55,735 nucleotides of DNA from Verrucomicrobiota bacterium (GCA_023265515.1 JAHFSZ010000005.1:1-55735); one strand, 5' to 3'; shown: positions 2-51,539, counted from the first letter of the stretch. The notes: generated by a model not told the origin, from the letters alone. Numbers and translations are program-made.

Positions 2-214
2 ATCGTCGTTGGCGGCACCAATAGCAACAACACGCGCGAGCTAGCCGAGACCTGCCGGCTTCACTGTCCGAGGGTTTACCGGGTTGAGAGCGCAGTCGAA
101 TTGCGGGCTGAATGGTTTTCAGGCGCCAAAACCGCCGGCCTGACCGCTGGAACGTCGACCCCCGACGGGGTCATCGCTGAAGTTGAGCTGGCTTTGAAAA
201 AAGTCGCCGCATAA
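2..214 (+). CDS. ispH: 4-hydroxy-3-methylbut-2-enyl diphosphate reductase, C-terminal 70 aa (5'-truncated by the window edge)
   Basis: My translation from nt 2 reads IVVGGTNSNNTRELAETC...GLTAGTSTPDGVIAEV*, matching the IspH/LytB C-terminal motifs VVGGxNSSNT and G(V/L)TAGxSTP. Stop TAA at 212-214. Not listed in the ORF track. Confidence 0.9.
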   Translation: MVVGGTNSNNTRELAETCRLHCPRVYRVESAVELRAEWFSGAKTAGLTAGTSTPDGVIAEVELALKKVAA

Positions 215-234
215 AAATGAAAACCAACTAACCG

Positions 235-1839
235 ATGCGTGTTCTGCTCCTCAACCCGCCACATCCTGCCGTGGCAAGCCGCTGCCACAGGGGCCAGATG
301 CCGCCAGCCGGCCACCTTGCAGTGGGCGGGCCTCTGATCGATTCCGGGCACCAAGTTCGACTGATTGATGCGGAGACCGGCCCGCTTTCAATATCCCAAG
401 CCGTTGCCGCTGCGACTTCATGGGCGCCGGACGTCGTCCTTGTTGGCCACTCGGGCTCTACCTCAGCTCACCCGACCATTGCTGAACTGGCTCGCGCGTT
501 AAAGATGGCGAACCCCCGCGTTCCGATTGTCTATGGCGGATTGTATCCCAGTTACCACGCGGAGGAGGTTCTATCCAACCATCACGAGATCGACGTCATT
601 ATCCGCGGCGAAGGCGAGGACACGACACGTCGGCTTGTCGCTGCTCTCGAATCAGGCGATTGCCTCAGCACGGTAAATGGAATCGCCTACCGTGATCACG
701 GCGTGCCACGCTTGACTGCCCCCGCACTCACCATTCAAAACCTCGATGCTTTTCGCGTTGGCTGGGAATTGATCGAGAACTGGGACGACTACCAATATTG
801 GGGCGCCGGCCGCGCTGCGGTAATCCAATTTTCACGCGGCTGCCCACACCGCTGCAGCTACTGCGGCCAACGCGGCTTTTGGACCCGCTGGCGCTATCGT
901 GATCCTCACAAGGTCGCGGCACAGATCGGGTGGCTTTACCGCACACACCGGGTCGGCTTCGTCGATCTGGCCGATGAAAATCCAACCACCTTGCCGCGGC
1001 TTTGGCGGACCTTCCTGGAGGCGCTCATCTCGCAGAATGTCCCGGTTCAGCTCGTCGGAACCATGCGGGCGAGCGACATTGTTCGAGACGCGGAGTTCCT
1101 GCATCTTTACAAGAAAGCCGGCTTCTCCCGCATCCTCATGGGCATGGAGAGCACCGATCCTGACACTCTCATGAAAATCCGGAAGGATGCCACAACCACG
1201 ACAGATCGCGAGGCAATCAAACTCCTGCGTCAGCACGATATCCTTTCCCAAGCCGCATATGTCGTCGGGTTCGAGGAAGAGACGGACCGCCAGTTTCTCC
1301 ACGGACTGCGGCAGCTCTTGTTATATGATCCCGACCAGGTCAATGCGATGTACGTCACGCCTCACCGCTGGACACCGTTTTACCGCGAGAGCGCCGGACG
1401 CCGAGTCGTTGAGCTGGACAAAAGCCGGTGGGACTATCGCCACCAGGTACTGGGCACCAGGATTCCTTCCTGGCGAGTGTTCCTCTGGGTAAAGCTGACC
1501 GAGGCCATTTTGCAGCTCCGTCCTCGCGCCTTGTGGCGGGTGATCGCGCATCGCGATCTCAAAATCCGCAGGGCGCTCCGATGGTGCTACGGCGTTGGCG
1601 CGCGCGCCTGGCTCTTTGAGATGCGCTCGTTCCTGCGTCCGCGGCGGCGTCAGCGTTCGCCCCGTCAAGTGACCCTTGCGCAGTTCTGGGGCGCACCGGG
1701 AGACGCTCATGAAGAAGCCTTGAGACCTGCGGAACGCCCCGCTCGCTCCCATGTTGCGGGCGCCTCTAAAACAGGTTACAATCCCGTGTTGATGAAAATC
1801 GGAACTCCCGTTCCCACCGTGCAGGTTTCGAGCGCATGA
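235..1839 (+). CDS. Cobalamin-binding (class B) radical SAM protein, BchE/HpnP-like superfamily; substrate unknown
   Basis: N-terminal B12-binding Rossmann domain (LLNPPH..MPPAG; PDVVLVG; PIVYGGLYPS) followed by the CxxxCxxC motif RGCPHRCSYC, then DLADEN and RILMGMES. Confidence 0.88.
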   Translation: MRVLLLNPPHPAVASRCHRGQMPPAGHLAVGGPLIDSGHQVRLIDAETGPLSISQAVAAATSWAPDVVLVGHSGSTSAHPTIAELARALKMANPRVPIVYGGLYPSYHAEEVLSNHHEIDVIIRGEGEDTTRRLVAALESGDCLSTVNGIAYRDHGVPRLTAPALTIQNLDAFRVGWELIENWDDYQYWGAGRAAVIQFSRGCPHRCSYCGQRGFWTRWRYRDPHKVAAQIGWLYRTHRVGFVDLADENPTTLPRLWRTFLEALISQNVPVQLVGTMRASDIVRDAEFLHLYKKAGFSRILMGMESTDPDTLMKIRKDATTTTDREAIKLLRQHDILSQAAYVVGFEEETDRQFLHGLRQLLLYDPDQVNAMYVTPHRWTPFYRESAGRRVVELDKSRWDYRHQVLGTRIPSWRVFLWVKLTEAILQLRPRALWRVIAHRDLKIRRALRWCYGVGARAWLFEMRSFLRPRRRQRSPRQVTLAQFWGAPGDAHEEALRPAERPARSHVAGASKTGYNPVLMKIGTPVPTVQVSSA

Positions 1840-2501
1840 TCGCACGGCACATCCATCACGCGCTTGCGCAGGTCCAGGAGCTGCAGCACCAGCTTCTAGA
1901 AAAGCAACGGTTCAAGGGCTACTCGGGACGCGCCCGGGCGGCGACCGGATGCCTGGCGCTGCTGGCAGCCATCGTGATGTCCGCGGATTCGTTTCCCCAG
2001 AAGGCATCATGGCACGCCGTTGGATGGGGCATTGTGTTTCTACTTGGCGCAGCGATCAACTTCGGCGCGCTGATCTATTGGTTCTTCACCGATCCGGATG
2101 ATATTTCGCGCGGAAAAACCGCGGGACGTGATGTGAGGCGCCTCAAACCGCTGATCGACGCATTCGGCCCGCTTTTCGTCGGCGCGGTTCTGACGTTCGT
2201 GTTTCTTTACGAAGGCCAGCACCGGCTGCTGCCCGGGATGTGGATGTGTCTTTTCGGGCTGGCGAACCTGGCGTCACGCCACGTGCTGCCCCGCGCCATT
2301 TTCCTGGTGGGACTCTTCTATATTATCTGCGGCACCGCCTGCCTGCTCTGCCCGGACATTTCATTCACCGATCCCTGGCCGACCGGCATCGTTTTTTTTG
2401 TGGGTGAATGGGCGGGCGGCTGGATCCTTCATTACGACAACGTCACCAACGCCTCGTTCAACCAGTTGATCGGGCGTCTGTTGGGAAGAGAGGAGCCATG
2501 A
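1836..2501 (+). CDS. Multi-pass (~6 TM) integral membrane protein, function unknown
   Basis: Several hydrophobic segments; ATGA overlap with the radical SAM stop. Confidence 0.75.
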   Translation: MIARHIHHALAQVQELQHQLLEKQRFKGYSGRARAATGCLALLAAIVMSADSFPQKASWHAVGWGIVFLLGAAINFGALIYWFFTDPDDISRGKTAGRDVRRLKPLIDAFGPLFVGAVLTFVFLYEGQHRLLPGMWMCLFGLANLASRHVLPRAIFLVGLFYIICGTACLLCPDISFTDPWPTGIVFFVGEWAGGWILHYDNVTNASFNQLIGRLLGREEP

Positions 2502-2884
2502 GCGATAAAAGTGAAAATCCTTATGAGGCCCTGGAGAAGATTTTTCACGAGCCAAACCGGCTCGCGATCATGTCGGCGCTCTGCCGCTCGAGCCATGGGC
2601 TCACCTTCAATGATTTGAAGGAGGAGTGCAGCCTGACCGATGGCAACCTGAGCCGGCACCTGAAGGCGCTGGAGGAGGCCGGCGCAATTGCCATCAAGAA
2701 AACCTTTGTCGGCGTCAAACCGCAGACCACCGCGCTGTTGTCTGCGAGGGGGCGGCAGAACTTCCTGGACTATCTGAAGGCGCTGGAAGAAGTCCTCAAA
2801 AAGGCCGCCGAGGCGATCGGGCCGGAAAAAAAGGAAGCCCGCCATCCACTGCGCCTCGGAAAAACTGCACGAGCCAAATCATAG
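2498..2884 (+). CDS. Winged-helix (ArsR/MarR-like) transcriptional regulator
   Basis: IFHEPNRLAIMSAL...LTFNDLKEECSLTDGNLSRHLKALEEAG motif. ATG at 2498 overlaps the upstream TGA and follows an AGGAG RBS. Confidence 0.88.
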   Translation: MSDKSENPYEALEKIFHEPNRLAIMSALCRSSHGLTFNDLKEECSLTDGNLSRHLKALEEAGAIAIKKTFVGVKPQTTALLSARGRQNFLDYLKALEEVLKKAAEAIGPEKKEARHPLRLGKTARAKS

Positions 2885-2890
2885 GATCCC

Positions 2891-4138
2891 ATGAAATGGC
2901 AGCGGACCGCTGGAAAGAATCTGTCGAATCCCCGACAAATGAATTCCAAAGACCGGGTCCGCCGCCTCGCACGCCCTGGCATCGCCCTTCTCCTTTTCCT
3001 CGCCGGGGTCTGGTTGATCCCTCACCGGTGGTGTTCGCGGGATTCCGGCGACTGGTACCGGGGCGACCCGGCAGTCCAGAAAAAACTGGCCGCCGGAGTG
3101 GAGCAATGGATCATCAAAGATCTTCAGCGCGACAACTATTCCACGGGCAACCGTCAGTTCAACGGCGAATGGCTCTTCGGAACCTACCTGATGGCCGGCC
3201 TGGGTTACGGCCAGACAGCCCTCGAGCATCCTGAATGGAGGACCCGCCATCTCCAGCTGATGGAACATTGCATCGACCGGATACTGACCCCGGGGGTCCG
3301 GGCCTTCGACCGGGAAAGCTGGCGCAACGATCCCATCGACTCGCTGGACGAGGACTCCGATCATGCTGCGTATCTGGGATACTTCAATCTCCTTCTGAGC
3401 CTCCACCGTCTTCTTGAACCCAAGTCTAAATACTCACAACTCAACGACCGGATCACGGAGGCTCTTTGCCGGCGCATTCACAACAGCCGGACGGGTCTCC
3501 TATCCACCTATCCGGGAGAAACGTACCCGGTAGACAACTGTGCGGTGATTGCGTCGATCGGACTCCACGACCGGGCGACCGGAACGAATCACCGCGAACT
3601 GCTTATGGCATGGGAAGCGCGACTCCGTGAAAAATACATCGACCCCACGTCAGGGCTGCTCTTCCAAGCCGTGGACTCGCTCGACGGCTCGCCGATCGAC
3701 GCCCCGCGTGGATCGGGGACGACGCTTGGCGCCTACCTGCTGTCATTTTCCCATCCGGGTCTTTCGCGGGAGCTTCATATGGCCGTAAAACGGCAGCTAT
3801 TCCGGACATGCCTCGGATTCGGCGCGGTGCGCGAATATCCCGTCTCGTTCTCGCGCGGACGGGGCGACATCGATTCGGGTCCCGTGCTCTTCGGCATCGG
3901 AATTTCACCGACGGGTTTCCTGGTTTCCACTTCAAGAATCTTCGGGGATCGATCCATGTTTTCCGACCTCTACGGGACAGTCGATCTCTTTGGCGCGCCC
4001 TTGGATGGCAACAACGGGCTCACGTTCGTGACGGGGGGACCGATCGGAAACGCCATCATGTTTGCGATGCTCACGGCCCAGCCGGAGGACGGACGGACGG
4101 ACGAAGCGCGTCCTTTGAGCGCCGGGGAGGGCTCATGA
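2891..4138 (+). CDS. Linalool dehydratase/isomerase-like (alpha/alpha)6-barrel protein A, N-terminal membrane anchor/signal
   Basis: The segment YLGYFNLLLSLHRLLEPKSKY...TYPGETYPVDNCAV...LHDRATGTNH...IDPTSGLLF parallels LinD (YKGHLNLMYGLYQLV...CEPDNYFVQCNSVA...YDRLHGTDY...IDPERGAFY, recalled from memory). Clear paralog of the next gene. Confidence 0.72.
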   Translation: MKWQRTAGKNLSNPRQMNSKDRVRRLARPGIALLLFLAGVWLIPHRWCSRDSGDWYRGDPAVQKKLAAGVEQWIIKDLQRDNYSTGNRQFNGEWLFGTYLMAGLGYGQTALEHPEWRTRHLQLMEHCIDRILTPGVRAFDRESWRNDPIDSLDEDSDHAAYLGYFNLLLSLHRLLEPKSKYSQLNDRITEALCRRIHNSRTGLLSTYPGETYPVDNCAVIASIGLHDRATGTNHRELLMAWEARLREKYIDPTSGLLFQAVDSLDGSPIDAPRGSGTTLGAYLLSFSHPGLSRELHMAVKRQLFRTCLGFGAVREYPVSFSRGRGDIDSGPVLFGIGISPTGFLVSTSRIFGDRSMFSDLYGTVDLFGAPLDGNNGLTFVTGGPIGNAIMFAMLTAQPEDGRTDEARPLSAGEGS

Positions 4139-5331
4139 AGCACGCTGTCCTTCTCCGGGCCCTCGGGTCCTTGATCGCATTGGGCGCCGCCGCGGCCATT
4201 TGGTTTCCGGCCATGCATTTGTTTTTTCGCCCCAACATGGATGATTACTTCGCCGTCAAGAGCGGCATTTCGCCGAAAGCCAGGGCAATCGCCGCCTACC
4301 AGCTCGATCTCTGGAAAGACCCGGGAAAACGCACCCGCGAGGTCGCGCGGATGCGAACAAGCAACGCCGAGTGGGATTTCATGGGCCGGACCTTTCTGGT
4401 TCTCTCGCTCGCGAACATGGCCCTGCACGAGCCGGACCGCCAGGAGGAGTATCTTAAAGTCATGGACCGAATCATCGAGGAAACCATCCGGTTCGAGAAC
4501 GACAAGGGCATCTATTTTTTCCTGATGGATTATGCCAGGGAGGGTAAATTCAGCTCGGACCAGCCCGCCAGCATCTTCATTGACGGCGAGACCGCCCTCA
4601 TGCTTGGCGCCCGCCGGATGGTCCGTGAGCGGACGGATTACAAGCCGATGATGAAGCAGCGGATCGACCGCCTGGTCAAGATGATGACCAAAGGTCCCGT
4701 GCTTTGCGCGGAGAGCTACCCGAATGAATGCTGGATGTTCTGCAATACGGTCGCCCTGGCAACGCTCCGGATTTCCGACGTCCTGGACGGTTCCGACCAT
4801 TCGGCATTCCTGAAAAAATGGGTCGCGACGGCAAAAACCAAGCTGATCGATGTCAAAAGCGGCCTGCTTTTTTCCAGTTTCGGCCTTGACGGAACTCCCC
4901 TCGACGGACCGGAAGGCTCGTCCATCTGGATGGTATCGCATTGCCTGCAAATCGTGGACCCGTCCTTCGCCAATGACCAGTACGCCAGAGCGCGGAAGGA
5001 ACTCGCAACAACGGTCTTTGGCTTTGGCTACGCCAAGGAATGGCCGGCCTGCTGGCGCGGCTCCCCCGACATCGATTCGGGGCCGATCGTGCCGGTATTG
5101 GATGCGAGCGCGGGCTCGAGCGGCTTGGCGCTCATCGGGGCAAGCGCCTTCAAGGATTCGGTCTACCTAAAGGCGTTGATCACGTCGCTCAACTTCGCGG
5201 CCTTTCCCAATAAACAGAACAACACCCTCCGCTACTGTGCAAGCAACCAGGTCGGCGATGCGGTCATTCTCTATTCCCTGGTCAACGGACCTCTCTGGGA
5301 CAAGGTGTTGCGCGCCAAGAAGGCATCATGA
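4135..5331 (+). CDS. Linalool dehydratase/isomerase-like (alpha/alpha)6-barrel protein B, N-terminal membrane anchor/signal
   Basis: ATGA overlap at 4135-4138 and hydrophobic N-terminus. ESYPNECWMFCNTVA...LDGSDH...LIDVKSGLL motif. Shares GFG...E(Y/W)P...DIDSGP with protein A. Confidence 0.72.
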   Translation: MKHAVLLRALGSLIALGAAAAIWFPAMHLFFRPNMDDYFAVKSGISPKARAIAAYQLDLWKDPGKRTREVARMRTSNAEWDFMGRTFLVLSLANMALHEPDRQEEYLKVMDRIIEETIRFENDKGIYFFLMDYAREGKFSSDQPASIFIDGETALMLGARRMVRERTDYKPMMKQRIDRLVKMMTKGPVLCAESYPNECWMFCNTVALATLRISDVLDGSDHSAFLKKWVATAKTKLIDVKSGLLFSSFGLDGTPLDGPEGSSIWMVSHCLQIVDPSFANDQYARARKELATTVFGFGYAKEWPACWRGSPDIDSGPIVPVLDASAGSSGLALIGASAFKDSVYLKALITSLNFAAFPNKQNNTLRYCASNQVGDAVILYSLVNGPLWDKVLRAKKAS

Positions 5332-5332
5332 C

Positions 5333-5680
5333 ATGAACCCCATTCAACCACGCGCCCACTGGCTGGACCGCATGTTTTCCCCGCACATGCTTCTTCGACG
5401 CGCCGTGATGTTAAGCCTTGTCTTTCTGCTCTGCGAAGTCGCCGGGCTCAGGGTTTACACATGCATCCTTTGCGGAACTTCGCCGGACGGTCAGCCGGTC
5501 GGCGTTTTGGCTGTCTTCCTCACCGGTTTCTACCTTTTCTTCTACTTTGCGTTCATCTGCGCAGTCCCCGTTCTCCTCCTGGCATCCCTCATTCTCCTAA
5601 CAACGAAAAGACTATCGAAAATCTCGAAAACTTCCACGGAGACGGACCATGAGAAACAAGATATCAACTCTGTTCGTTGA
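5333..5680 (+). CDS. Small 2-TM membrane protein, hypothetical
   Basis: ATG 1 nt after the upstream stop; two long hydrophobic stretches. Confidence 0.65.
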   Translation: MNPIQPRAHWLDRMFSPHMLLRRAVMLSLVFLLCEVAGLRVYTCILCGTSPDGQPVGVLAVFLTGFYLFFYFAFICAVPVLLLASLILLTTKRLSKISKTSTETDHEKQDINSVR

Positions 5681-5960
5681 AACCGGCCTACTCCTCTTGA
5701 TTCACTTCGTTTTGATCAACTGGATGGCGGAGGATAACCCGGTTGCCAGAATTTTGGCGCTGGGGGAGCATACGCCCTTATGGGTGTCGACGCTCTGCGT
5801 GATTTTCCTGGGAGTCAGAATCCTGCTCCTCGTCCTGCTTCCGGGCATCATCGCGCTACGGCTTGGAATGATCCTTTTCGACCAGCTCGGAAGGCAACGA
5901 CCGGAGCCGGTTCCCGAGACAGCCCCTACTCAGGGCTCCACTTCTGCTTCCGCTCAGTGA
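5649..5960 (+). CDS. Small 2-TM membrane protein, hypothetical
   Basis: Overlaps the previous gene, two hydrophobic stretches; last gene of the operon. Confidence 0.6.
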   Translation: MRNKISTLFVETGLLLLIHFVLINWMAEDNPVARILALGEHTPLWVSTLCVIFLGVRILLLVLLPGIIALRLGMILFDQLGRQRPEPVPETAPTQGSTSASAQ

Positions 5961-6303
5961 TGAGCCGCTGATATTTCTCTTTCTGATCGTCACTCAAGAG
6001 CTGCATCACACGGTGGTCGAAGTCATCGACGATCTTGACGAAACGCGGCTGTGCTTCGCCGCGCAGAGTTTGAAGCTGCGCGTGGGAATCCATGATGATT
6101 TCATGGAGCTTGGCCTTCTGCTGTTCGTCCATGCCCAGCTTGCCCGTGATCCGCTTTTCGATCCGGTCACGGACCCACTCCGGGTTCGCGGCAGCTTGCC
6201 GGATGAAATGGATCGTCATCCGGTGGCCGGCGATGACGCCGACCAGCGCTCCCGCGAGGAAGATTGCCGCCACCCACAACCATGCTTTCCATCGATTCAT
6301 CAT
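5926..6303 (-). CDS. Spy/CpxP/ZraP-like periplasmic helical protein (heavy-metal sensor-like)
   Basis: N-terminal TM (WLWVAAIFLAGALVG), then KLGMDEQQKAKL...LLSDDQKEKY (LTxxQ-like repeats). Start moved to MMNRW. Confidence 0.7.
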   Translation of the reverse strand: MMNRWKAWLWVAAIFLAGALVGVIAGHRMTIHFIRQAAANPEWVRDRIEKRITGKLGMDEQQKAKLHEIIMDSHAQLQTLRGEAQPRFVKIVDDFDHRVMQLLSDDQKEKYQRLITERKQKWSPE

Positions 6304-6320
6304 GATCTTGTTCGCTTTCT

Positions 6321-6611
6321 CTATGAGTAAAAAGTCCAGAACCACGGGTCCGTCAGCTTCGTCCAATCCTGGGCCGCGCCCCAGTCGCCGCCGAACAGGA
6401 GCCAGTCGCCGCAGGCTAGAAGAATAACCGCCGCCATCGCCGGCGCCAGGAACTGGCGGGCCGCGATCGCGATCAATTCAAAAGGCGATGACGTCTCCAC
6501 TTTCACGCCAGCAATCGCCGAAACAACGCGGCTTACAAATGTGTTCGAGGGAACCGGAGACTCTTCCCCGCGCGCCGCCTCGAACAATTTTTTCAGTTTA
6601 TCATCACTCAT
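6321..6611 (-). CDS. Putative anti-sigma factor-like single-TM protein
   Basis: Directly downstream of an ECF sigma; short N-terminal helix plus one TM. Confidence 0.6.
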   Translation of the reverse strand: MSDDKLKKLFEAARGEESPVPSNTFVSRVVSAIAGVKVETSSPFELIAIAARQFLAPAMAAVILLACGDWLLFGGDWGAAQDWTKLTDPWFWTFYS

Positions 6612-6635: not shown

Positions 6636-7205
6636 TCAATAACAGGATCGTTCATGGCCCATCCGCTCCAAAATTTTCTTCAACTTGGCTCGCGCCCGGT
6701 GGGCCCGGACGCGGACCGCGACGCCTGACCAGCCTGTCATGCGCCGGATCTCCTCGACGCTCCGCTCCTCGATCTCGAGAAGCGTGATCACGATGCGGTC
6801 CTCCGGTGAAAGTTTCGACAGGGCCAGCCCAAGCACCTCGCGCGCGTCGCGCACTCCGATCTCAGAAGGCCGGTCGCTCCGCAGCCAGTCGAGAACCGAA
6901 TCGCCGAGCGAGGAAAAGGGAACTTCCTGTCGCAGGCGTTTCTGTTTTCGCAAATGATCGAGCGCGGTGCGGACGGCAATCCGGGAAATCCAGTGCTCGA
7001 AGGGCGCGCGGCCGTCGAACTGGGCGAAGGCCCGCCATGCCTTGATGAAAGTCTGCTGGGCGAGGTCCTCCACGCGTTGGATGTCGCGCTCGTAGCGCCC
7101 CAGGATCGCGAAAACCCTCCGCTGGTGCCGCTGGACCAACTCTCCGAAGGCATCCGTTGAGCCTTGGCGGACTTCTTCGATGATTTCATGCTCATCCTCG
7201 CTCAT
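6636..7205 (-). CDS. ECF-family RNA polymerase sigma factor (sigma70 region 2 + region 4)
   Basis: DAFGELVQRHQRRVF, EDLAQQTFIKAWR, FEHWISRIAVRTALDHLRK, LSKLSPEDRIVITL..., GVAVRVRAHRARAKL. Confidence 0.92.
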   Translation of the reverse strand: MSEDEHEIIEEVRQGSTDAFGELVQRHQRRVFAILGRYERDIQRVEDLAQQTFIKAWRAFAQFDGRAPFEHWISRIAVRTALDHLRKQKRLRQEVPFSSLGDSVLDWLRSDRPSEIGVRDAREVLGLALSKLSPEDRIVITLLEIEERSVEEIRRMTGWSGVAVRVRAHRARAKLKKILERMGHERSCY

Positions 7206-7306: not shown

Positions 7307-7804
7307 TCAGTCATTGAGCGCAGGATGGCTTCCAACATTCTTGAGGAACCAGTCGATGTTGTCATCGATCCGTTTCTGGAACTCCGTGACCTTGTCGTGC
7401 TGCTCCTTGGTCAGGATCGGGCTGATTTTGGCATAAACTTTGGCCCTTTCAACAGCCAAATCCGATTCGATGGCCGCCACCTTCGCGGACGCCGCGCGGA
7501 CCGCCCTCTCGTCAACCTTGCCGTTGGACGATTGCTGAATCACACCGCGCATCTCGACGCGGGCCTGGTGCAGGTCCGACAACTTGGACAGAACGACATC
7601 CTTCTCCTCATTGCGGACTTTCTTGATTTGCGCGACCTGATCCTCGTTGAGGTCGAGTTTTTCCGCGATGCGCTGGGCGATCAAGCCGTGAAACCGGCCC
7701 GATCCCAGGGCACCCGTCTTGGCGGCCTGCGACTCATAGACGAAAGCGCCGCCCGCCATCAACAGCACGGCGGCGGCGATCCATGTTATTCTTCGTGTTT
7801 TCAT
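7307..7804 (-). CDS. Spy/CpxP family periplasmic chaperone
   Basis: Signal peptide, KLDLNEDQ and ILTKEQ (LTxxQ) motifs. Confidence 0.85.
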   Translation of the reverse strand: MKTRRITWIAAAVLLMAGGAFVYESQAAKTGALGSGRFHGLIAQRIAEKLDLNEDQVAQIKKVRNEEKDVVLSKLSDLHQARVEMRGVIQQSSNGKVDERAVRAASAKVAAIESDLAVERAKVYAKISPILTKEQHDKVTEFQKRIDDNIDWFLKNVGSHPALND

Positions 7805-12078: not shown

Positions 12079-13491
12079 ATGGAAAATTTTCTCATCTCGT
12101 CACTCAAGTTCCTTTATTGCACTTTCATGGTCCTGCTGCTCTTCAACCTGACCATCTTCGTGCATGAATACGGGCATTACCTGCTGGCACGCTGGCGAAA
12201 ACTGAAGGTCGACGAGTTTTCCATCTGGTTTGGCCCGGCGATCTGGCAAAAGAAGATCGGCGGCATCCTCTTTTCACTCCGCTCCATCCCGCTCGGAGGC
12301 TACGTCAAACTTCCCCAGCTCCAGCCCGACGATCCGATCGAGGGCAAGAGCGAAATTCCGAAAGAGGAGCTTCCCTACGCTCGCCCCGTCGACCGGATCC
12401 CGACGCTCTTTGCCGGAAGCGTTTTCAATTTTCTTTTTGCGATCCTCATCGCGTGCCTTCTCTGGGTGGTCGGCATTCCGGTGGACAAGTCATTCACCGA
12501 CACGACCATCGGCTACGTTCCGGAAAACAGTGCGGAAGCGGCGGCCGGTCTCCGAATCGGAGACAAAATCGTTTCCATCAACGGCAATGCGGTCCACGAC
12601 TGGATGGACATCAAGGCTGAAACCGCTCTGGCCACGACCTCCACCCTGAGCCTGTCGGTGCTCCGCGACCACGGAACGGAAGCCCTTCATTTTCAGCCGG
12701 CCAAAAACATGCTGGGAATCCGGGAACTGCAATCCGAGTCACGACAGGGTGTGGTGGTGGGCCGGGTGATCGATGGCACACCCGCCAGCCGGGCGGGCCT
12801 GAAAACGGATGACCACATTCTCTCCGTCGATGGCATCGAACTTCTCAGCCCCGATCATCTCGCCTCGATTGTTGCTCCGCGAATCGGCAAGGAATGCGCC
12901 ATCGTTCTCGAGCGAAATGGAAACCGGATGAATTTGACCGTAACGCCGGTTCTCGATCCGGACGCCCGCCGCGGCAAGATCGGGATCGGATTCAAGGTAT
13001 CAGAGGCCGACACCGTTCTCATCCATCCCAACCCCATCAAGCAGATCACCGAGGTGCTCCTGCGGATGGCGCAGATCATCAACGCGATTTTTCATCACAA
13101 AGAAACCGGCATCGGCGTCAAGGACCTCGCCGGACCCATCGGAATCGTCGACCAGCTCTACCAGATGGTCGCCGTGGACATCCGGCACGCGCTTTATTTC
13201 CTGGTCCTGCTTAATGTCAACCTGGCGATCCTCAACCTGCTTCCCCTGCCGGTCCTCGATGGGGGGCACATCATGTTTACAATACTCGAGTGGGCGCGAA
13301 GAAAGCCCCTGAATCACAAGCTGATGGAGGCGATCCAGATGACGTTTGTCATTCTCCTGCTCGCTTTTGTTGTTTACGTCTCGTTCAACGATGTGAAAAG
13401 ATGGCAATTGATGCATGGTTTTGGCCCGAAACCCGAAGCGGTCCCGGCGGGCCAGAACCCGGCATCCAACCGTCCCATGGATCGAAAATAG
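12079..13491 (+). CDS. rseP: RIP/S2P intramembrane metalloprotease with two PDZ domains
   Basis: HEYGH zinc motif, PLGGYVK, NLLPLPVLDGGH; canonical position after dxr. Confidence 0.95.
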   Translation: MENFLISSLKFLYCTFMVLLLFNLTIFVHEYGHYLLARWRKLKVDEFSIWFGPAIWQKKIGGILFSLRSIPLGGYVKLPQLQPDDPIEGKSEIPKEELPYARPVDRIPTLFAGSVFNFLFAILIACLLWVVGIPVDKSFTDTTIGYVPENSAEAAAGLRIGDKIVSINGNAVHDWMDIKAETALATTSTLSLSVLRDHGTEALHFQPAKNMLGIRELQSESRQGVVVGRVIDGTPASRAGLKTDDHILSVDGIELLSPDHLASIVAPRIGKECAIVLERNGNRMNLTVTPVLDPDARRGKIGIGFKVSEADTVLIHPNPIKQITEVLLRMAQIINAIFHHKETGIGVKDLAGPIGIVDQLYQMVAVDIRHALYFLVLLNVNLAILNLLPLPVLDGGHIMFTILEWARRKPLNHKLMEAIQMTFVILLLAFVVYVSFNDVKRWQLMHGFGPKPEAVPAGQNPASNRPMDRK

Positions 13492-13499
13492 AGCACGAA

Positions 13500-15554
13500 A
13501 TGAATCCAGCACCGTATTGTTTTCACCCGTTTTCTTATCAGCGGCGCAAGACCCGCGAGGTGAAGGTCGGATCTGTCGGCATCGGCGGCGCCAACCCGAT
13601 CCGCATCCAGTCAATGACGACCTCCGACACCATGAACACCGACGCCACGGTCAAGGAGACAATCGAGCTGGTCAAGGCGGGTTGCGAGATCGTCCGAATC
13701 ACCGCTCCGACCAGCAAGGACGCCCAGAACCTCAAGAATATCCGGGCCGAGCTGCAGAGGCGGAATATCCACGTTCCCCTCGTGGCCGACATCCACTTTT
13801 TGCCCTCGGCCGCCATGGAGGCCGTCAACCATGTCGACAAAATCCGGGTCAACCCGGGCAACTACGCCGACAAGAAGAAGTTCGCCATCCGCGAATACAA
13901 CGATGATCAGTACAATGAGGAGCTCCAGCGCCTCCATGACGCATTTTCCCCGCTGGTCAAGCGCTGCCTGTCGCTCGGTGTCGCCATGCGCATCGGCACC
14001 AACCACGGCTCGCTTTCCGACCGGATCATGAACCGCTACGGCGACACGCCGCTGGGCATGGTCGAGTCGGCGCTCGAGTTCGTCCGCATCTGCCGCGACC
14101 ACAACTATCACCAGATCGTCCTTTCCATGAAGGCCTCCAACCCGAAGGTCATGATCCAGGCCTACCGGCTGTTGGCTCAGCGGCTGGGCGAATTCTCCTG
14201 GGATTATCCCTTTCATCTCGGAGTCACGGAGGCGGGCGACGGCGAAGACGGGCGCATCAAATCCGCCATCGGAATCGGGTCGCTCCTGGACGATGGCATT
14301 GGCGACACCATCCGCGTCTCCCTGACGGAAGACTCGATCCATGAGATCCCGGTCGCGCGGGCCATCGCCGGGAAATACAACGAAGGCCGCGGCCCGGTCG
14401 CGAGGCTCGATCTCGGATCGATCGATCTGAAGGAGGTCCGCAATCCTTACGAATACACGCGCCGCAAGTCGCGCGAGGTGACGGTCGGCGATCTGGCGGT
14501 CGGCCACTCGGAAACAATCTGCGTCGAAATCCCGCTCGAGCTGCATGACCCCCGGTTGGAGCAAAACATTTTCGACGTCACCCAGGGCAACCGTGATGTC
14601 GTTGCCGAAATCATCCAGTTTCAGGCCAAGGGCGCCGCGGATTTTGAAAAAATCCAGGAGCTCCGCAGCGAAGAAGGCTCGGCGGCTGGATCGAACCTCT
14701 TTTCCGTCAATATCGGCAGCCAGGCCGCGCTGGTCGGACAGCTTCCGATCGGCATTGCCGAGAAGATCATTTTCGAACCCGGCGGCTCCTGGACCCCGGA
14801 ACACTTCGACAACCTGATCGATTACGCGCAGACCAACGAGGCCGCGCTCCAGATCAATCTCTGCGACAACAACTGCCACCACGGGAAGAACTTCTTTGAA
14901 CGTTGCCGCGACAAGGGATTCTTCGAGGTCCTCGTCGGCATTGGCCGCACCGAGAACGTCGGCCTGGTCCAAGGGTATCGTATTTTGGCATCCTATCTTG
15001 CCCAGCTGGAGATCGATTTTCCCATCCAGCTTCGAAACATCGACTCCTCTGGCGTCGGATCCGGTGACGAAAAGAGCCTCCTGCTCGAATCAGCCCGCAA
15101 CATTGGCAGCCTGCTCTGCGACGGCATCGGCGATTCAATCGAGGTGTCCGGCCCGGCACCGAAGGAGGCCCTGCGCTGGGCCTACAATATCCTGCAGGGA
15201 ACCGGCAACCGCATTACCAAGACCGAATACGTCTCCTGCCCATCCTGTGGACGAACTCTCTTCAATCTCCAGTCAACCACCGAGAGGATCAAGCAGAAGA
15301 CCGTGCACCTCAAAGGAGTCAAGATCGCGATCATGGGATGCATCGTCAACGGACCCGGCGAGATGGCAGACGCCGACTTTGGCTACGTCGGCGGCGCGCC
15401 CGGCAAGGTGAATCTCTACGTTGGCAAGGAGTGCGTCCAGTATCACGTCCCCGAGGCCGAGGCCGACCAGCGACTGATCGATCTGATCAAATCCCACGGC
15501 AAGTGGGTCGAACCCGAAACTTCCGCCCAACCAACCGGGCAGGCTCGCACCTGA
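13500..15554 (+). CDS. ispG: (E)-4-hydroxy-3-methylbut-2-enyl-diphosphate synthase, long three-domain type
   Basis: IQSMTTSDT, PLVADIHF, RVNPGN, RIGTNHGSLS, HLGVTEAG, GIGDTIRVSL, SCPSCGRT, MGCIVNGPGE. Start moved to ATG 13500. Confidence 0.96.
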   Translation: MNPAPYCFHPFSYQRRKTREVKVGSVGIGGANPIRIQSMTTSDTMNTDATVKETIELVKAGCEIVRITAPTSKDAQNLKNIRAELQRRNIHVPLVADIHFLPSAAMEAVNHVDKIRVNPGNYADKKKFAIREYNDDQYNEELQRLHDAFSPLVKRCLSLGVAMRIGTNHGSLSDRIMNRYGDTPLGMVESALEFVRICRDHNYHQIVLSMKASNPKVMIQAYRLLAQRLGEFSWDYPFHLGVTEAGDGEDGRIKSAIGIGSLLDDGIGDTIRVSLTEDSIHEIPVARAIAGKYNEGRGPVARLDLGSIDLKEVRNPYEYTRRKSREVTVGDLAVGHSETICVEIPLELHDPRLEQNIFDVTQGNRDVVAEIIQFQAKGAADFEKIQELRSEEGSAAGSNLFSVNIGSQAALVGQLPIGIAEKIIFEPGGSWTPEHFDNLIDYAQTNEAALQINLCDNNCHHGKNFFERCRDKGFFEVLVGIGRTENVGLVQGYRILASYLAQLEIDFPIQLRNIDSSGVGSGDEKSLLLESARNIGSLLCDGIGDSIEVSGPAPKEALRWAYNILQGTGNRITKTEYVSCPSCGRTLFNLQSTTERIKQKTVHLKGVKIAIMGCIVNGPGEMADADFGYVGGAPGKVNLYVGKECVQYHVPEAEADQRLIDLIKSHGKWVEPETSAQPTGQART

Positions 15555-15572
15555 TTCCAGCAGCGCCGCCGG

Positions 15573-16226
15573 CTAAGATGCCAGGCTTTCGTAGTTCTGC
15601 TCCGTAATATAGCGGTAATACTTATCGAAGAGGGCATCCGCGTCCTGCGGGTCGCCCTCCGGGTTGATTCTCTCGATTTTGGGAAGGATGGCGGCCGAAA
15701 GAATTCCTTCCTCGAAAGCTCTTTTAACGCCAACACCGTAAAGGATCACGGCATAGAGGCGGGGAACATTCGCCGGTAGCTGGTCGATTTCCTGATCCGT
15801 CAACAGTGGAATGCCGATCAGCGATGCGACCGCGTCGGCGTCAGGGTATTGTTTGAGAATGTCAAGATAGACCTTGTTCGGCATGCCGGCGCCGGTTCCC
15901 CGCGACATGTCGTCGATTTTGACGGTGACCCGCCCAACGATTTTGAATTTGCCTTCATACGGGCCGAAGCCCCGATTGAAGCCTTGGGTTTGCCCGCGGA
16001 ATACCGGGCTGTCGACGCTCGAATCCATCATCACGAGCACGAGCTTCGAACCTTCGGGAAGTTCCTGACCCAGCCGTTTGCCAAGCCCCTCGGTCGCGGC
16101 CGCCTGGCGGCTGACATCGATCTTGGGAGACCTTTCGCACTGCGTCAAGAAGAGGGAAAGAATCGAAATCACAATGGCCGCGATGCAGATGCCGGTCACG
16201 AGGGGTTTCTGTGCGCCCAAATTCAC
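15573..16226 (-). CDS. Hypothetical membrane-anchored periplasmic alpha/beta protein
   Basis: Single N-terminal TM (ICIAAIVISILSLFL), then a globular domain. GTG start at 16226 is a guess. Confidence 0.6.
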   Translation of the reverse strand: MNLGAQKPLVTGICIAAIVISILSLFLTQCERSPKIDVSRQAAATEGLGKRLGQELPEGSKLVLVMMDSSVDSPVFRGQTQGFNRGFGPYEGKFKIVGRVTVKIDDMSRGTGAGMPNKVYLDILKQYPDADAVASLIGIPLLTDQEIDQLPANVPRLYAVILYGVGVKRAFEEGILSAAILPKIERINPEGDPQDADALFDKYYRYITEQNYESLAS

Positions 16227-16466
16227 CGTTTGATCATATAATGAATGGCTTCGATCAACGCAACGATTTTTCCCCCACACTTTCCAGTCGGATCTGCCCA
16301 AAAATCTTGCTTCTGGAGAAGATCTTGTCTTACGGTGCCCGCTCGGCCGGGATGGAAGAAAGTGCGGGGCTTTTCCTTTTGACAGATTCTAGCCTTTTCG
16401 TGATGATCCCCAGCCGAGGAGTTTGCCTGCACCCGACACGGCCGCAGGCGAGTTCAAGCCGGGCCG

Positions 16467-17393
16467 ATGACACACACTCAAACCATCTTTTGGGCGATCA
16501 TTGTGCTTTGCCTGGCCATGCCGGGGCGGGCTCAGCAAACCCAAGTCCAGCAGCAATCCCAGCAGGGGGCCGTCGAAGAGATCCGGCGGGCACAGAAGTA
16601 CGTCGTTGTTCCCAAACTTTCACCTGAGGACCAGGAGGAATTCGGCGAACAGGTCGTCCTCACCGAAAAACCCGTCCAGCCGATCTTCACGGGTTACACC
16701 GACAACCAGCTGCTTTTTGAGTCCAACGCCCTCCTGACCCACGGTAACGAAGAAAGTGACATGCTCTTCATTTCCACAACCGGCTTCGGCATCCAGCCGC
16801 CCCTTCCGGAGGATTGGAAAAAAGTGATTTTGGTTTTCAACGGCCGCTTCCAAGCGTACCGTTACAATGATCAGAACCAGCTGAACTTTCACATTTACAC
16901 CGGCGGCGTGACCGCCGGCTACCAGGTGGACGACCTCCTTTCGGTCCTCACCGGCCACAGTTACAACATTTACTACAATGAGGAGTCGTACGACAAATTT
17001 TTCGAGGAAACCGATCACTTCATCAGCGTCAATCGCGCGATCCCGATCGCAGACGATCTGGCGGCCTTCGTGGGCGCGCAGGTCCAGTACCGAAATACCG
17101 CTCCGGCGCGCTTTTCGCGGATGGAGTACGACCTTTTCGGCGGCGTGCGTTATGCGCTCGACGAAAAGTGGGTCGCGCAGATCTACGAGCGCGCCGAATA
17201 CCAGGATTATGTCGCGAACTTCACCCGCCACGACTGGAATCTCCAGTCGGTGCTGTCGCTGACCCACTATTTCAACGAATGGGCCAGCGCCCGGATCATG
17301 GGGCACTACACTTACAATAATTCGAGCATTAACGTCCTCGACTACCAAAATTTCGAGTCTGGCGGGGCGATTACTTTTACCGCTCAATTTTAA
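16467..17393 (+). CDS. Outer-membrane beta-barrel protein
   Basis: Signal peptide, alternating aromatic/hydrophobic strands, C-terminal Phe (ITFTAQF). Confidence 0.75.
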   Translation: MTHTQTIFWAIIVLCLAMPGRAQQTQVQQQSQQGAVEEIRRAQKYVVVPKLSPEDQEEFGEQVVLTEKPVQPIFTGYTDNQLLFESNALLTHGNEESDMLFISTTGFGIQPPLPEDWKKVILVFNGRFQAYRYNDQNQLNFHIYTGGVTAGYQVDDLLSVLTGHSYNIYYNEESYDKFFEETDHFISVNRAIPIADDLAAFVGAQVQYRNTAPARFSRMEYDLFGGVRYALDEKWVAQIYERAEYQDYVANFTRHDWNLQSVLSLTHYFNEWASARIMGHYTYNNSSINVLDYQNFESGGAITFTAQF

Positions 17394-44452: not shown

Positions 44453-47400
44453 TCAATCGCGCGTCCAGCGAACAGAGTCGACGTAGAACGTTGTGGGTGT
44501 CTGGGCGGTGATCTTCAGAGGGCACGAGACATGTGCGGGATCAACTCCCGTAAAGCTGCTGATCGCAATGCTGATTTCCTGCCACTGGCCGGCCGTCGAA
44601 CTGATAAATTTCGTCCGGGTAATGCCCCCGGGTGATTCGATTTCCACTTTCAGGGTGGATGTGCTTTTGACCCAAAACTTCAAGTGTCCGCTCGCGTAAG
44701 ACGATAGATCGTAAGTGCCACTCACCTTGAATACGCCCCAACCGGCGAAGCCGATGGTGGTCGTCTGGAAACACTCCGTCCCTTCCGGCGGCGTTTCGCC
44801 CGTGAAGCTGCCGTCCCAGGATCCAACTCCCCAGGTAAAAACCGTCGAATCCGAAGGCACGCCTGCATCCGAATAGACGCTGAAAACAGTGCCGACCGTG
44901 ATCGTTGTTTCAGGCTCATACGGCAACCCCTCCGGAGTAAACCGAAATGTGTCATCCATGCCGATCCTCTCCTCGTAGGGTTGTATGCCCGGTCGCTTAT
45001 GGTCAAAGATATAAGCGCCCCACATGTAATTGGCTCCGTAGGGAGTGTTCGCCGGGATCGTGATGGGAAACATCTGGTTGCCGCTGCCCGTGCTGATGAG
45101 GAAGTCCGAGGTCATGTAGGTGACTCCCAGGTAGACATCCTGGAGAAAGATCCGGAGCGTCATGGGGAACGATACCTGATACGGCTTCCACTGTGTGAGC
45201 ATCACGATCGTATCGAGATCATTCCAGACCACCGGGACATAGACGGTCGTGCCCGGATCAAACACCGTCGGGAAGGCCGGGTCCTCAACCTTCAGGCGCG
45301 GCGCCCATGAGACCTTGGTCGGCGCCGTGCTCAGGTCCGACGACTCGGTAAACCAAGTGGCCCAGCGGTATTTGCCTCCGCTGGCCCCGTCCTTGAAGGA
45401 TGGGTCACCCGGATCATAATCCGGCACCAAGGCGTAGTTGGGCGTGTAAGGCGGACGGAAGTCGTCGACGACACCGTTGACCACCTCGCTCTGCAGCCAG
45501 TTCTCGAACCGCATGTCCTTGGCCGACGGATAACCGCTCAACGTCGCCGCCTTGTTCAGTGTGATTTTGTCGTTGGGCGAACCACCGTCGTTCAATGTGA
45601 TGCGGTAGTACTTCGCCGCTGTGTCAAGATTGATGGTTGGCGTGTAACTGCTAGCCGCGGTGGGCGAACTGTAGATGTTTGTCCAAGTCGTCTCGTCGGA
45701 GGTTTTCTCAACCATCACCTGGTTGTTGCTACCGGCCAACTGGAAGGCCATGGTGATCTTCGGCGAGGTTGCCGACGCGATGTCTTTGAAGGCAAGGAAG
45801 AGTCGCGGCCTCTGTGCCGGTCCAACGGCGTTGCTCACCCAGTTCTGGGCGCTCTCTTCCAGCCAGGCGTTTGGATCGACGACTCCATCAAACATCGGAC
45901 TGCCGCCATAGACCTTGTTGACCAGGCCATCGCCGTTGTCGCCATCGCCCATGAGGCCAAAGTTCAGCGTCAGAGACTGGCCCCTCGTGTTATATGCAAC
46001 CCAGTTGTCGAAGGTCCGGCCAGCCATGGCCAGCGGTGTCGCGCCCGCGTGGAGGAGGCCGTATCCGGCGATGCTGGATTGGAAACCAGGATCATTTGAC
46101 GACGTGTAGAAGCCGGTCTGACTGAGCCATGGATCGGATGCGTCCCACGGGTAAGCGAATGCAATCCAGTAAATATTACCGTCGCCCGTCATCGTGGTCG
46201 ATGGCAGCGTGAACTGCACGTTCTGGCTGCCGGTGCCGTCGAGGGTCCAAATATCCTGTTCGGCAAGTACGAAGTCGTCACCGCTTGGAGTCGCATATTT
46301 GAGCTGGATCTTGATCTTGTAGATCTCGCGCGTCGCCGAATCCAAAACCCTCTGGGCAATCAGTTGGTACTGGTTGGTCATCTGGTCAAACGTATCCACG
46401 CCGAAGTTGAACACATAGGCCTTGCTCCGCCTGTCCCCATAGTCCGACGTACGCGCGTAGGTTGTGTCGAAGTAATACGTCCCCGCGTTCTGCTCATACA
46501 ACTCGATGGACGTGATTTGCTTCCAGTCGACGCCCGTGACGGCGGCCGGGGTGATCGGCCAGTAAATCTGCGTCCACTGATTTTGGATCGCATGGCCCGG
46601 CGACCAGACCATGGAACTAAGATTGCCCCATTTGTCTTTGAACTTGATCTGGACCGTGTTGTTGTCCTGCGTGTCGTAGACCCAGGCGTAAAAGCCCACG
46701 ATGCTGCTCAGGTCCACAGTTCCGCCGGGCGCCCCCAGGTTGAGACCGATCGTGCCACCTCCGCTTCCCACGGTCATCTTGACCGAGTGCGATCCGGCCT
46801 GAACAATTCCCGTCTCAAAGGCGAGGCTCGCCTGCCAAGCGTCGTAAAAGTAGGCGCCCGGCGTGCTGTTGTCCGGCTCGAAGTCCTGGAAAGACACGTC
46901 GCCCTTGGCAATCGAGTTGCTGATCATTGCGGGCGCCGAAAAGCCCGCGTTCAAAATATCAGCCAGCTTCGTTCCCGTCGTCAACACCGTCCATGCGGTG
47001 GCCGATGCGTTCGGATTCGACGCGATCAGCTGGCCGTTCGAGTAGGTTTGCGTGATGTAGTTGTTGGTATCGGTCACCCTCAGATTCTGGAGAAAACCGA
47101 GGGAAGTCGCTGCCGGGGCCACGCCGAAGATGCTTTCGACACGGCCGGGGCCGTTGGAGCCGTCTGGCTTCAGCATGCCGACGCCGCCATCGGTGGCAAT
47201 TACGGCGAACTGCGCCGATTGGGAGTAAGCCCTGAGGTTGTAACACTCATCGTTGTTCATGACATAAACGCTCGGGAGGATGACCGTGCTGAAGAATGAT
47301 TTCAGGTACCCCCAGTTGAGGTTCAGGAGTTCGCTGTCGGTCCCCCGCTCGGTGTCATCCACGAAGTAATATCCCTTCGTGGGCTCCCAAACGCCGAGCT

Positions 47401-51388: not shown

Positions 51389-51539
51389 GGTTGTTGTTTT
51401 GTCGAAAGATTTTTGAGATCCCGGAAGCCGGCTTAACCCCAATGAGACACTCGGGAATTTAAAGAGTATAAATACTTAGTTCAGTTCCCCACGAAGCGAT
51501 CCTTGTACTATCCTCACCCCTCTTGATCTGCAAGAAATT

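Follow-up and report, generated by a model that had tools for sequence, protein, structure and literature searches.

The first 5,960 nucleotides (nt) of a 55,735-nt stretch of DNA from a Verrucomicrobiota bacterium (GCA_023265515.1; JAHFSZ010000005.1, positions 1 to 55735; the whole of this stretch is here called the window) carry eight co-oriented genes, which we read as the distal part of a single autoregulated operon that is controlled by a putative sensor-repressor pair, serves isoprenoid or polyprenyl envelope lipids, and begins on another contig (C21) of the same genome. Taken as a whole, this reading has in our judgment about an even chance of being right. The eight genes encode the C-terminal end of IspH, a BchE-like cobalamin-dependent (class B) radical SAM enzyme, a membrane protein with six transmembrane (TM) helices (TM6), an HTH_34/ArsR-like winged-helix regulator, two paralogous proteins related to the linalool dehydratase LinD (LdiA and LdiB), and two small TM proteins (sm7 and sm8). 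A literature search found no description of this gene set or cluster.

Coordinates are those of the window throughout, unless another contig or locus is named. The window begins with the start of contig C11 of the genome (G000), and the start of the operon therefore lies outside it. A check of open reading frames (ORFs) and their translations placed eight plus-strand ORFs at positions 2 to 5960, all where a preliminary description of the window, made from the sequence alone, had put them. The ispH gene is represented by its last 70 codons (positions 2 to 214), which match PF02401 (LYTB) with 70.6 bits and TIGR00216 with 68.3 bits. It is followed by the genes for the radical SAM enzyme (534 amino acids [aa]; 235 to 1839), TM6 (221 aa; 1836 to 2501), the regulator (128 aa; 2498 to 2884), LdiA (~400 aa; 2891 to 4138), LdiB (~400 aa; 4135 to 5331), sm7 (two to three TM segments; 5333 to 5680), and sm8 (two TM segments; 5649 to 5960). 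Four-nucleotide ATGA overlaps are present at 1836, 2498, and 4135, the remaining junctions are gaps of 20, 6, and 1 nt, and sm7 and sm8 overlap by 32 nt; the claim of eight co-oriented, coupled genes is borne out by these positions. A pattern scan detected no sigma-70-like promoter on the plus strand between positions 1 and 5960. Junctions this tight (4-nt overlaps, or spacings that do not exceed 20 nt) and the lack of an internal promoter-like site argue for one operon. At its end, the same type of scan found a weak terminator-like hairpin with a T-rich tail (plus strand, 5954 to 5971); such hairpins are no commoner than in shuffled sequences, and its position alone speaks for it. The genes past the hairpin are convergent.

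The probable upstream part was located on contig C21, the last 619 nt of which (positions 13463 to 14081 of G000 contig C21; 7464 to 8082 of locus L096) are 91.8% identical to positions 1 to 619 of the window. Most of the overlap is nearly identical, but within the 3' end of ispH the identity falls to ~64% over 100 nt. C21 carries, in this order, a glyoxalase-family gene, a gap of 71 nt, the gene for a 501-aa DUF4153 membrane protein, a full-length ispH (278 aa) that is ATGA-coupled to the DUF4153 gene, and the start of the same radical SAM gene as in the window. Based on the sequence overlap, C21 and the window contig are most simply taken as strain variants of one locus at an assembly break, with a patch that could be strain variable or recombined; the two could also represent paralogous ispH-radical SAM loci. 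Between a TTGACA hexamer, which it closely follows, and the start of the DUF4153 gene, which is 11 nt away, lies the 17-bp palindrome ACTTTGTAATGCAAAGT. No other exact site of its kind occurs in the 2.2-Mb genome, and the window contains no such operator even at two mismatches. The single exact site on C21 and the lack of any in the window suggest that the whole set forms one operon that includes its own regulator. No prenyltransferase or methyltransferase gene, for which the preliminary description had proposed to look upstream, was found upstream on C21, and the only uppS of the genome is located on another contig (C73).

The regulator matches PF13601 (HTH_34) with 76.6 bits (threshold, 27) and also has matches to HTH_20 and HTH_5; its nearest solved relatives are PH1061 and ArsR. 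Its partner TM6 was modelled with AlphaFold2 (AF2) as one N-terminal helix plus six long helices (pLDDT, 86). TM6 had no match among PDB structures (best E value, 0.5) and none to a Pfam or NCBIfam family. We found 387 homologues with 50% to 60% identity, in Verrucomicrobiota, Calditrichota, Planctomycetota, and Acidobacteriota (statements on phyla, here and below, rest on the better-labelled metagenome-assembled genome [MAG] records), and TM6 is also distantly related to a verrucomicrobial family of membrane proteins designated c15 (hhalign, 95.8%). In every context read that showed TM6 or c15 plus its downstream flank, the HTH_34 gene comes next.

The palindrome ACTTTG-N5-CAAAGT is present in nearly all of the aligned spacers between the regulator gene and ispH, often as a perfect 8-1-8 palindrome (ACTTTGTA-N-TACAAAGT), and the exact pattern occurred 50 times in the loci examined at that stage. 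To count its surroundings, we used 80 LdiB loci from different species, each including as much as 10 kb of flanking sequence in both directions (1.25 Mb), and clustered all ORFs. These loci contain 44 sites with at most one mismatch, versus 2.7 expected (~16-fold), and the 44 sites are confined to 27 loci, essentially those with the regulator gene (26 of the 80). The operator is located just upstream of TM6/c15-HTH and of ispH; it also precedes the BchE-like radical SAM gene and then LdiB (L076, L078, and L079), LdiB directly (L066), a stand-alone gene for the membrane protein c17 (L115), and another membrane protein gene (L114). From this placement, HTH_34 is most likely a repressor acting at the palindrome, and TM6 is likely a membrane sensor or anti-repressor; both roles are putative. 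The small winged-helix protein and the perfect inverted repeat, which overlaps its own and its target promoters, resemble the repressors of the ArsR/SmtB type. Unlike those, however, the regulator has no metal-binding or other sensor domain but an invariable, translationally coupled 6-TM partner, its predicted targets are isoprenoid and membrane protein genes, and its operator is predicted from the sequence.

The promoters themselves are of two kinds. At verrucomicrobial cargo promoters (20 sites, in loci that include L026, L037, L039, L044, L066, L074, L076, L114, and L115), a sequence with the shape of an extracytoplasmic function (ECF) sigma factor promoter, TTTGAACA-N16-17-(C/G)GTCT, directly precedes the palindrome, and the promoters of the regulator show TTGACA- or TTGCCA-like hexamers. 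ECF sigma genes homologous to one just downstream in the window are found near LdiB clusters in ~10 other loci, with no shared promoter motif. Control of the cargo by the neighbouring ECF sigma factor was considered and dropped, as none of the adjacent ECF sigma genes, the one in the window among them, is preceded by the TGAAC-N16-17-CGTCT motif.

The regulator and operator were also found together outside the Verrucomicrobiota. Lentisphaerae-labelled loci have the order operator-TM6-HTH, and in two Calditrichota genomes this order is continued by a variant operator (GCTTTG-N5-CAAAGC), uppS (PF01255, 284 bits; 9513 to 10295 of L116 and 9245 to 10054 of L117), and a Mur-ligase-like gene. A Planctomycetota-labelled MAG has the order operator-ispH-TM6-HTH, followed by an Ldi-like gene, a gene for a protein of 400 aa, c14 (another membrane protein), and DUF4153. 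In an Acidobacteriota-labelled MAG (L118), operator-TM6-HTH is followed by a second, exact operator, a gene for a ferritin-like protein, and YjbQ; the ferritin-like protein (265 aa; 5453 to 6250 of that locus, directly behind the exact operator) is diiron-like, with two ExxH motifs and weak matches to COQ7 and rubrerythrin. Two further contigs have operator-TM6-HTH-operator-YjbQ, and one of them goes on with DUF4153 and then BacA. The cargo behind the same regulator and operator varies and includes ispH, uppS, DUF4153, YjbQ, B12 radical SAM enzymes, the diiron-like protein, and LdiA/B. Operator and regulator appear to define a conserved, apparently undescribed regulon that is tied to isoprenoid or polyprenyl metabolism. 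The proposal of a locally regulated, isoprenoid-linked unit is strengthened by this distribution, in which the operator and TM6/HTH_34 precede ispH, the BchE-like gene, and LdiB, and a variant operator precedes uppS.

Some other genes in these loci were seen repeatedly or once. YjbQ (PF01894) is a recurrent cargo gene (L118, L120, and L121). A gene for BacA, the undecaprenyl-diphosphate phosphatase, lies ~600 nt after the TM6-HTH-YjbQ-DUF4153 cluster in L120 (10708 to 11529), and a gene for a DgkA-family kinase lies between the regulator and the barrel proteins in the Lentisphaerae-labelled locus L008 (8496 to 8840); each of the two is a single case.

The ispH gene of the window belongs to the short type and, judged from the sequences, is an accessory second copy. 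The window fragment is identical to the full 278-aa ispH of C21 at 57 of 70 positions, and the C21 protein, in which the conserved cluster cysteines and the H-x-E motif were read from the sequence, scores 249.9 bits against TIGR00216 (cutoff, 187.85), the 68.3 bits of the window being those of only 70 aa. A second, long ispH of the PRK13371 type (473.6 bits) is located on contig C28 (positions 14356 to 16524 of G000 contig C28; L097), and the window fragment is identical to it at only 24 of 78 positions. The question whether the genome has a second, housekeeping ispH is thereby answered: it has one, of the long type, and the copy in the window is the accessory one. Among 41 genomes of the class, the long ispH is nearly universal, being present even in a genome of 0.9 Mb, and the short one is accessory; one short and one long copy are the usual count in 23 further LdiB-carrying genomes.

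Short ispH loci were taken from 14 members of the class, the majority without LdiB, along with the two ispH loci of genome G015. The short ispH adjoins TM6/c15 and HTH in 13 of the 14 short-ispH loci (the exception is L109), and the two copies in G015, which are of a different, weakly similar kind, are both unlinked to TM6/c15 and HTH. Two arrangements were seen: type I, c15-HTH-ispH and further genes, and type II, DUF4153-ispH-(c14)-TM6-HTH, as in the window. That this might be the only ispH of the genome, with an adjacency specific to the lineage, had been named beforehand as a possible weakness of the proposal; the copies found speak against it.

Second IspH/LytB copies have been described elsewhere. 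Mycobacterium tuberculosis carries LytB1 and LytB2 (PMC4550268), and ispH genes occur inside hopanoid clusters (PMC4263297). The case described here is similar in that there are two nonidentical ispH genes per genome, one of them in a specialised cluster. It differs in that the accessory copy is tied to a 6-TM/HTH_34 pair and an operator and in that the long copy, not the accessory one, adjoins a squalene-synthase-family gene. As to that gene, the long ispH on C28 stands back to back with a member of the squalene/phytoene synthase family (SQS_PSY), and the genome also has a squalene-hopene cyclase (contig C40). The bacterium is probably a hopanoid producer, judged by these genes.

The radical SAM protein contains B12-binding (PF02310, 70.3 bits) and Radical_SAM (PF04055, 65 bits) domains, and its CX3CX2C motif is present as CPHRCSYC. 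It scores 477.7 bits against TIGR02026 (BchE), 3.6 bits below the cutoff of 481.35, and its orthologue in L078 reaches 512.1 bits, so the family straddles the cutoff. The score against HpnR (TIGR04367) is 138.6 bits and falls far short of the cutoff of 650, which sets the protein apart from that enzyme; among solved structures, the methylases CysS and TokK come closest. With BchE, HpnR, HpnP, TokK, and CysS it shares the succession of B12-binding and radical SAM domains and the CX3CX2C motif, and with BchE the near-threshold score. No match to the reaction-centre family (PF00124) or to BchH (TIGR02025) was found in G000, which is 88.5% complete, or in G056, G060, and G061, the other genomes in which an orthologous radical SAM gene stands beside LdiB. 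In view of these four carrier genomes, we conclude from gene content that the radical SAM protein is not a functional BchE. Homologues of ~60% to 75% identity (P0122 to P0240) form a very large family in Planctomycetes, Abditibacteriota, Armatimonadota, and Chloroflexi; those with ~75% identity are found in Planctomycetes MAGs and are annotated as BchE in nonphototrophs. The BchE-like gene had no conserved neighbours in three long contigs from other lineages, where it is a lone gene. Contrary to BchE, the family is mostly stand-alone in nonphototrophs, and the genome carrying it here lacks the bacteriochlorophyll pathway genes that were sought. Annotation pipelines name the family [quoted passage not shown] in nonphototrophs, which looks like systematic overannotation around the TIGR02026 cutoff.

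LinD is a periplasmic homopentamer with a capping disulfide (C48-C101) and with the active site at the subunit interface, and it catalyses the hydration and dehydration of allylic terpene alcohols and the 1,3-shift of their hydroxyl group. LdiB matches the corresponding Pfam family (PF18566) with 32.2 bits, above the cutoff of 26.1, and LdiA with 24.2 bits, just below it. Searched with phmmer, LdiA matched the LinD chains at an E value of 1.5e-7, and the LdiB profile matched LinD at 7.5e-14; LdiA and the LdiB profile are paralogous at 25% identity (hhalign, 99.9%). An AF2 model of LdiB, built from an alignment of 24 sequences that has 82 invariant residues, reached a pLDDT of 90.9 and a pTM of 0.91. 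When this model was compared with the PDB by Foldseek, the first 27 matches were all LinD chains (E values of ~1e-12; TMq, 0.72; TMt, 0.79; 19% identity), and the next were GH76 mannanases and AGE-family epimerases, with E values of 4e-5 or worse and TM scores of ~0.47. The structural comparison was made for the LdiB model, and LdiA was placed by sequence and profile. Both barrel proteins are relatives of LinD and not of the glycosidases or epimerases that had been considered as the alternative, on the evidence of Foldseek and the profile for LdiB and of phmmer for LdiA.

The catalytic residues of LinD are not generally retained. In the alignment, C171 of LinD is matched by S194 in LdiB, an invariant Ser, and by Thr in LdiA. 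The position of H129 holds E152, likewise invariant, in LdiB and Tyr in LdiA, and that of C180 holds C203 in LdiB, where it is at least 90% conserved, and Asp in LdiA. Variants of LinD in which Cys is replaced by Ser fold yet are inactive (PMC6600392, in the numbering of which C171 and C180 are C170 and C179). LdiA and LdiB are homologues of LinD yet, from their residues, cannot be classed as linalool dehydratases. Each has one N-terminal hydrophobic helix with basic residues ahead of it, an arrangement that makes a periplasmic orientation of the barrels probable. In sequence searches, the first 140 residues gave no alignment with LinD. In sm7 and sm8, two to three stretches are hydrophobic, and sm7 matched no Pfam or NCBIfam family.

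Compared with LinD/Ldi of Castellaniella defragrans (PDB 5G1U and 5I3T; PF18566), the best match in both sequence and structure, LdiA and LdiB have the same (alpha/alpha)6 barrel and a probable extracytoplasmic location, and LdiB has conserved the C180 equivalent. On the other hand, the identity is ~19%, a predicted, uncleaved N-terminal TM anchor takes the place of the Sec signal peptide of LinD, each barrel has a small TM protein as its companion, and the genes lie in a regulated operon with ispH, whereas LinD has a monoterpene catabolic context. A membrane-anchored LinD homologue is known from Thauera linaloolentis: the linalool isomerase Lis is a protein of 644 aa, encoded by a stand-alone gene, with four TM helices at its N terminus and a domain that is predicted to be cytoplasmic (PMC4791888). 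By its description, Lis resembles LdiA and LdiB in that helices at the N terminus hold a LinD-like domain at the inner membrane, and it is a precedent for a membrane-bound enzyme of the LinD fold acting on a hydrophobic prenyl alcohol. It differs in having four helices, LdiA and LdiB being ~400 aa in length with one.

More than 2,200 LdiB homologues of 55% to 63% identity were identified in Verrucomicrobia, Planctomycetes, Kiritimatiellae, and Lentisphaerae MAGs, and a scan with one genome per species yielded 310 carriers. In 71 of the 80 loci, sm7 is directly 3' of LdiB, as expected of a cognate partner. Other genes of the window are less constant companions, with ispH in 19 loci, B12 radical SAM genes in 10, and TM6 in 7; the BchE-like orthologue is directly upstream of LdiB in L076, L078, and L079. 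True LdiA orthologues (53% to 56% identity) were found in L013 and L057. The order in L013 is LdiB-sm7-LdiA-sm8, and sm8 also follows an LdiA-like fragment in L113. Because of the order in L013 and the adjacency of LdiB and sm7, each barrel seems to have its own small TM partner, sm8 being the probable partner of LdiA. The verrucomicrobial pattern is c15(TM)-HTH-ispH-[B12 radical SAM or c17]-c6 (two to three copies)-c8-LdiB-sm7-[second Ldi-like gene]-c14, in which c8 is DUF1361, and the membrane proteins c6, c14, c15, and c17 matched no Pfam or NCBIfam family. In a relative of the same order (G007), LdiB-sm7 is alone on its contig, with neither regulator nor operator. Lentisphaerae-labelled genomes have TM6-HTH-LdiA/B and contain no ispH and no SQS_PSY gene, with only weak matches to cyclase domains.

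These counts change the picture drawn in the preliminary description. The expected co-occurrence across phyla was seen for modules, which recur behind the regulator or operator, but not for the full set, which was found in no other genome. None of the three outcomes that the preliminary description had listed as refuting it was observed. The idea of a fixed eight-gene pathway found no support, since LdiB-sm7 is mostly alone, the radical SAM family is mostly stand-alone, and LdiB is present in genomes without ispH; the cargo is modular. Hopanoids as the general substrate were rejected on the grounds that the Lentisphaerae-labelled genomes with LdiA/B have neither SQS_PSY nor a strong match to squalene-hopene cyclase. 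Record titles were unreliable in places: L049, L065, L068, L073, L074, and L089 have verrucomicrobial gene order and are titled Bifidobacterium, Rickettsiales, Acidoferrum, or Electrothrix. These loci are probably mislabelled bins or contaminating contigs.

In the autoregulated operon that we propose, HTH_34 would bind the palindrome and repress the operon, and TM6, coupled to HTH_34, would sense a membrane signal and relieve the repression. The short-type IspH would then raise the supply of isopentenyl and dimethylallyl diphosphate. The BchE-like B12 radical SAM enzyme could functionalise an unactivated carbon of a probably lipidic substrate, and LdiA with sm8 and LdiB with sm7 could add or remove water, or shift a hydroxyl group, at an allylic position of a prenyl chain. 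LdiA and LdiB are predicted to be signal anchored and would probably face the periplasm; their small TM partners would sit at the membrane interface. A common target for the cargo, if there is one, could be a prenyl-type membrane lipid that the radical SAM enzyme and the LinD-like enzyme-partner pairs modify at the inner membrane.

Several observations weigh against this proposal. LdiB-sm7 occurs without the regulator, ispH, or a radical SAM gene in ~53 of the 80 loci, and in other phyla the BchE-like gene stands by itself. C21 was joined to the window on the strength of an overlap of 92% identity that holds a 100-nt patch of 64%; the contigs could be two paralogous loci, and the own promoter of the window genes would then be unseen. 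In both barrel paralogues C171 and H129 are replaced, and C180 is kept in LdiB alone. Since LdiB is present in Lentisphaerae-labelled genomes with no ispH, no squalene/phytoene synthase, and no strong cyclase match, no link of its substrate with this ispH or with hopanoids has to be assumed. Finally, a cargo of mostly family-less membrane proteins fits a general membrane-stress regulon equally well.

This last point leads to the main rival explanation, in which the genes share a regulator but no pathway: TM6/HTH_34 would mediate a general response to membrane or envelope stress, and the cargo, consisting of a backup IspH isozyme for certain redox conditions, assorted membrane proteins, and independent radical SAM and LinD-like enzymes, would act independently. 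We regard it as unlikely, though a real possibility. The cargo varies by genome and consists mostly of orphan membrane proteins (DUF4153, DUF1361, c6, c14, and c17) and YjbQ, LdiB-sm7 and the BchE-like gene are each self-sufficient elsewhere, and the cargo promoters are ECF-like at the 20 verrucomicrobial sites, with an ECF sigma/LTXXQ operon just downstream in the window, all of which this explanation would accommodate. However, the ECF-like motif is not found upstream of the neighbouring ECF sigma genes, and the cargo that comes first after the regulator is, in different phyla, one or the other of two isoprenoid enzyme genes, ispH and uppS, with BacA and a DgkA-family gene nearby; envelope genes picked at random would be expected to include fewer such genes. 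Another explanation is chance neighbourhood or inherited synteny with no functional link, for which it can be said that the complete eight-gene set occurs in no other genome among the 80 loci. We strongly disfavour it, because the operator is conserved before each module across phyla at ~16-fold over expectation, the genes remain linked although their order is rearranged (c15-HTH-ispH in type I versus DUF4153-ispH-TM6-HTH in type II, and inverted in L079), and the genes of the window are translationally coupled.

A further explanation is defence against exogenous terpenoids, in which TM6/HTH_34 would sense membrane-active terpene alcohols from plants or microbes, the LinD-like enzymes would dehydrate or isomerise them in the periplasm and so detoxify them, as has been proposed for LinD, and the extra IspH would feed the synthesis of hopanoids that stiffen the membrane. 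LinD and Lis act on free monoterpene alcohols, the periplasm has been judged optimal for a defence enzyme (PMC4791888), and the genome and its relatives carry squalene-hopene cyclase and SQS_PSY genes. Nevertheless, we consider this role quite improbable, as the conservation of LdiB (55% to 63% identity across phyla and habitats, with 82 invariant residues) fits a fixed endogenous substrate better than xenobiotics, the catalytic residues of LinD are not kept, family searches of the window ORFs found no genes for the further catabolism of terpenes in the operon, and the radical SAM enzyme has no obvious place in such a defence. Least credible of all is a genuine BchE in a cluster that serves tetrapyrrole metabolism. 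A score that misses the cutoff by so little, an orthologue (in L078) that exceeds it, and the name given to the family by pipelines would agree with this, but neither PF00124 nor BchH was detected in G000 and the three other carrier genomes, and the family is widespread in nonphototrophs.

Within the autoregulated operon proposed above, a more specific role can be imagined, which we put forward as a doubtful speculation in both of its parts together: TM6/HTH_34 would be a cross-phylum sensor-repressor pair for the pool of the polyprenyl (undecaprenyl) carrier, and LdiA/B would be the first polyprenol-specific hydratases or isomerases. The supply genes that the pair switches on would be ispH (Verrucomicrobiota and Planctomycetota) and uppS (Calditrichota), perhaps along with recycling by BacA or DgkA. 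Placed on the outer face of the inner membrane, LdiA/B would have free polyprenol, at its allylic alcohol end, or else a related prenyl lipid as their substrate. Further modification of this lipid would be due to interchangeable C-H-activating enzymes of the B12 radical SAM or the diiron kind. To our knowledge, the regulation of isoprenoid and lipid-carrier supply is barely known outside model bacteria; if the autoregulated operon proposed above is right, the sequences of four or more phyla show a regulator pair and its exact operator, the direct targets being ispH or uppS. LinD has, as far as we know, been an isolated biocatalyst with one characterised relative (Lis). More than 2,000 highly conserved membrane-anchored homologues with a different active site would then suggest that the substrate is endogenous and probably lipidic and that the hydratase chemistry is new. 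Placement in a regulon would also give a first handle on the real role of the overannotated "BchE" family.

Downstream of the hairpin, the minus strand of the window carries genes for two small family-less proteins (5926 to 6366 and 6321 to 6611), the ECF sigma factor (6636 to 7205), and an LTXXQ-family protein (7307 to 7804). Two very long ORFs, of 2,329 and 1,130 aa, are located on the same strand at 44453 to 51442 and 51540 to 54932, respectively.

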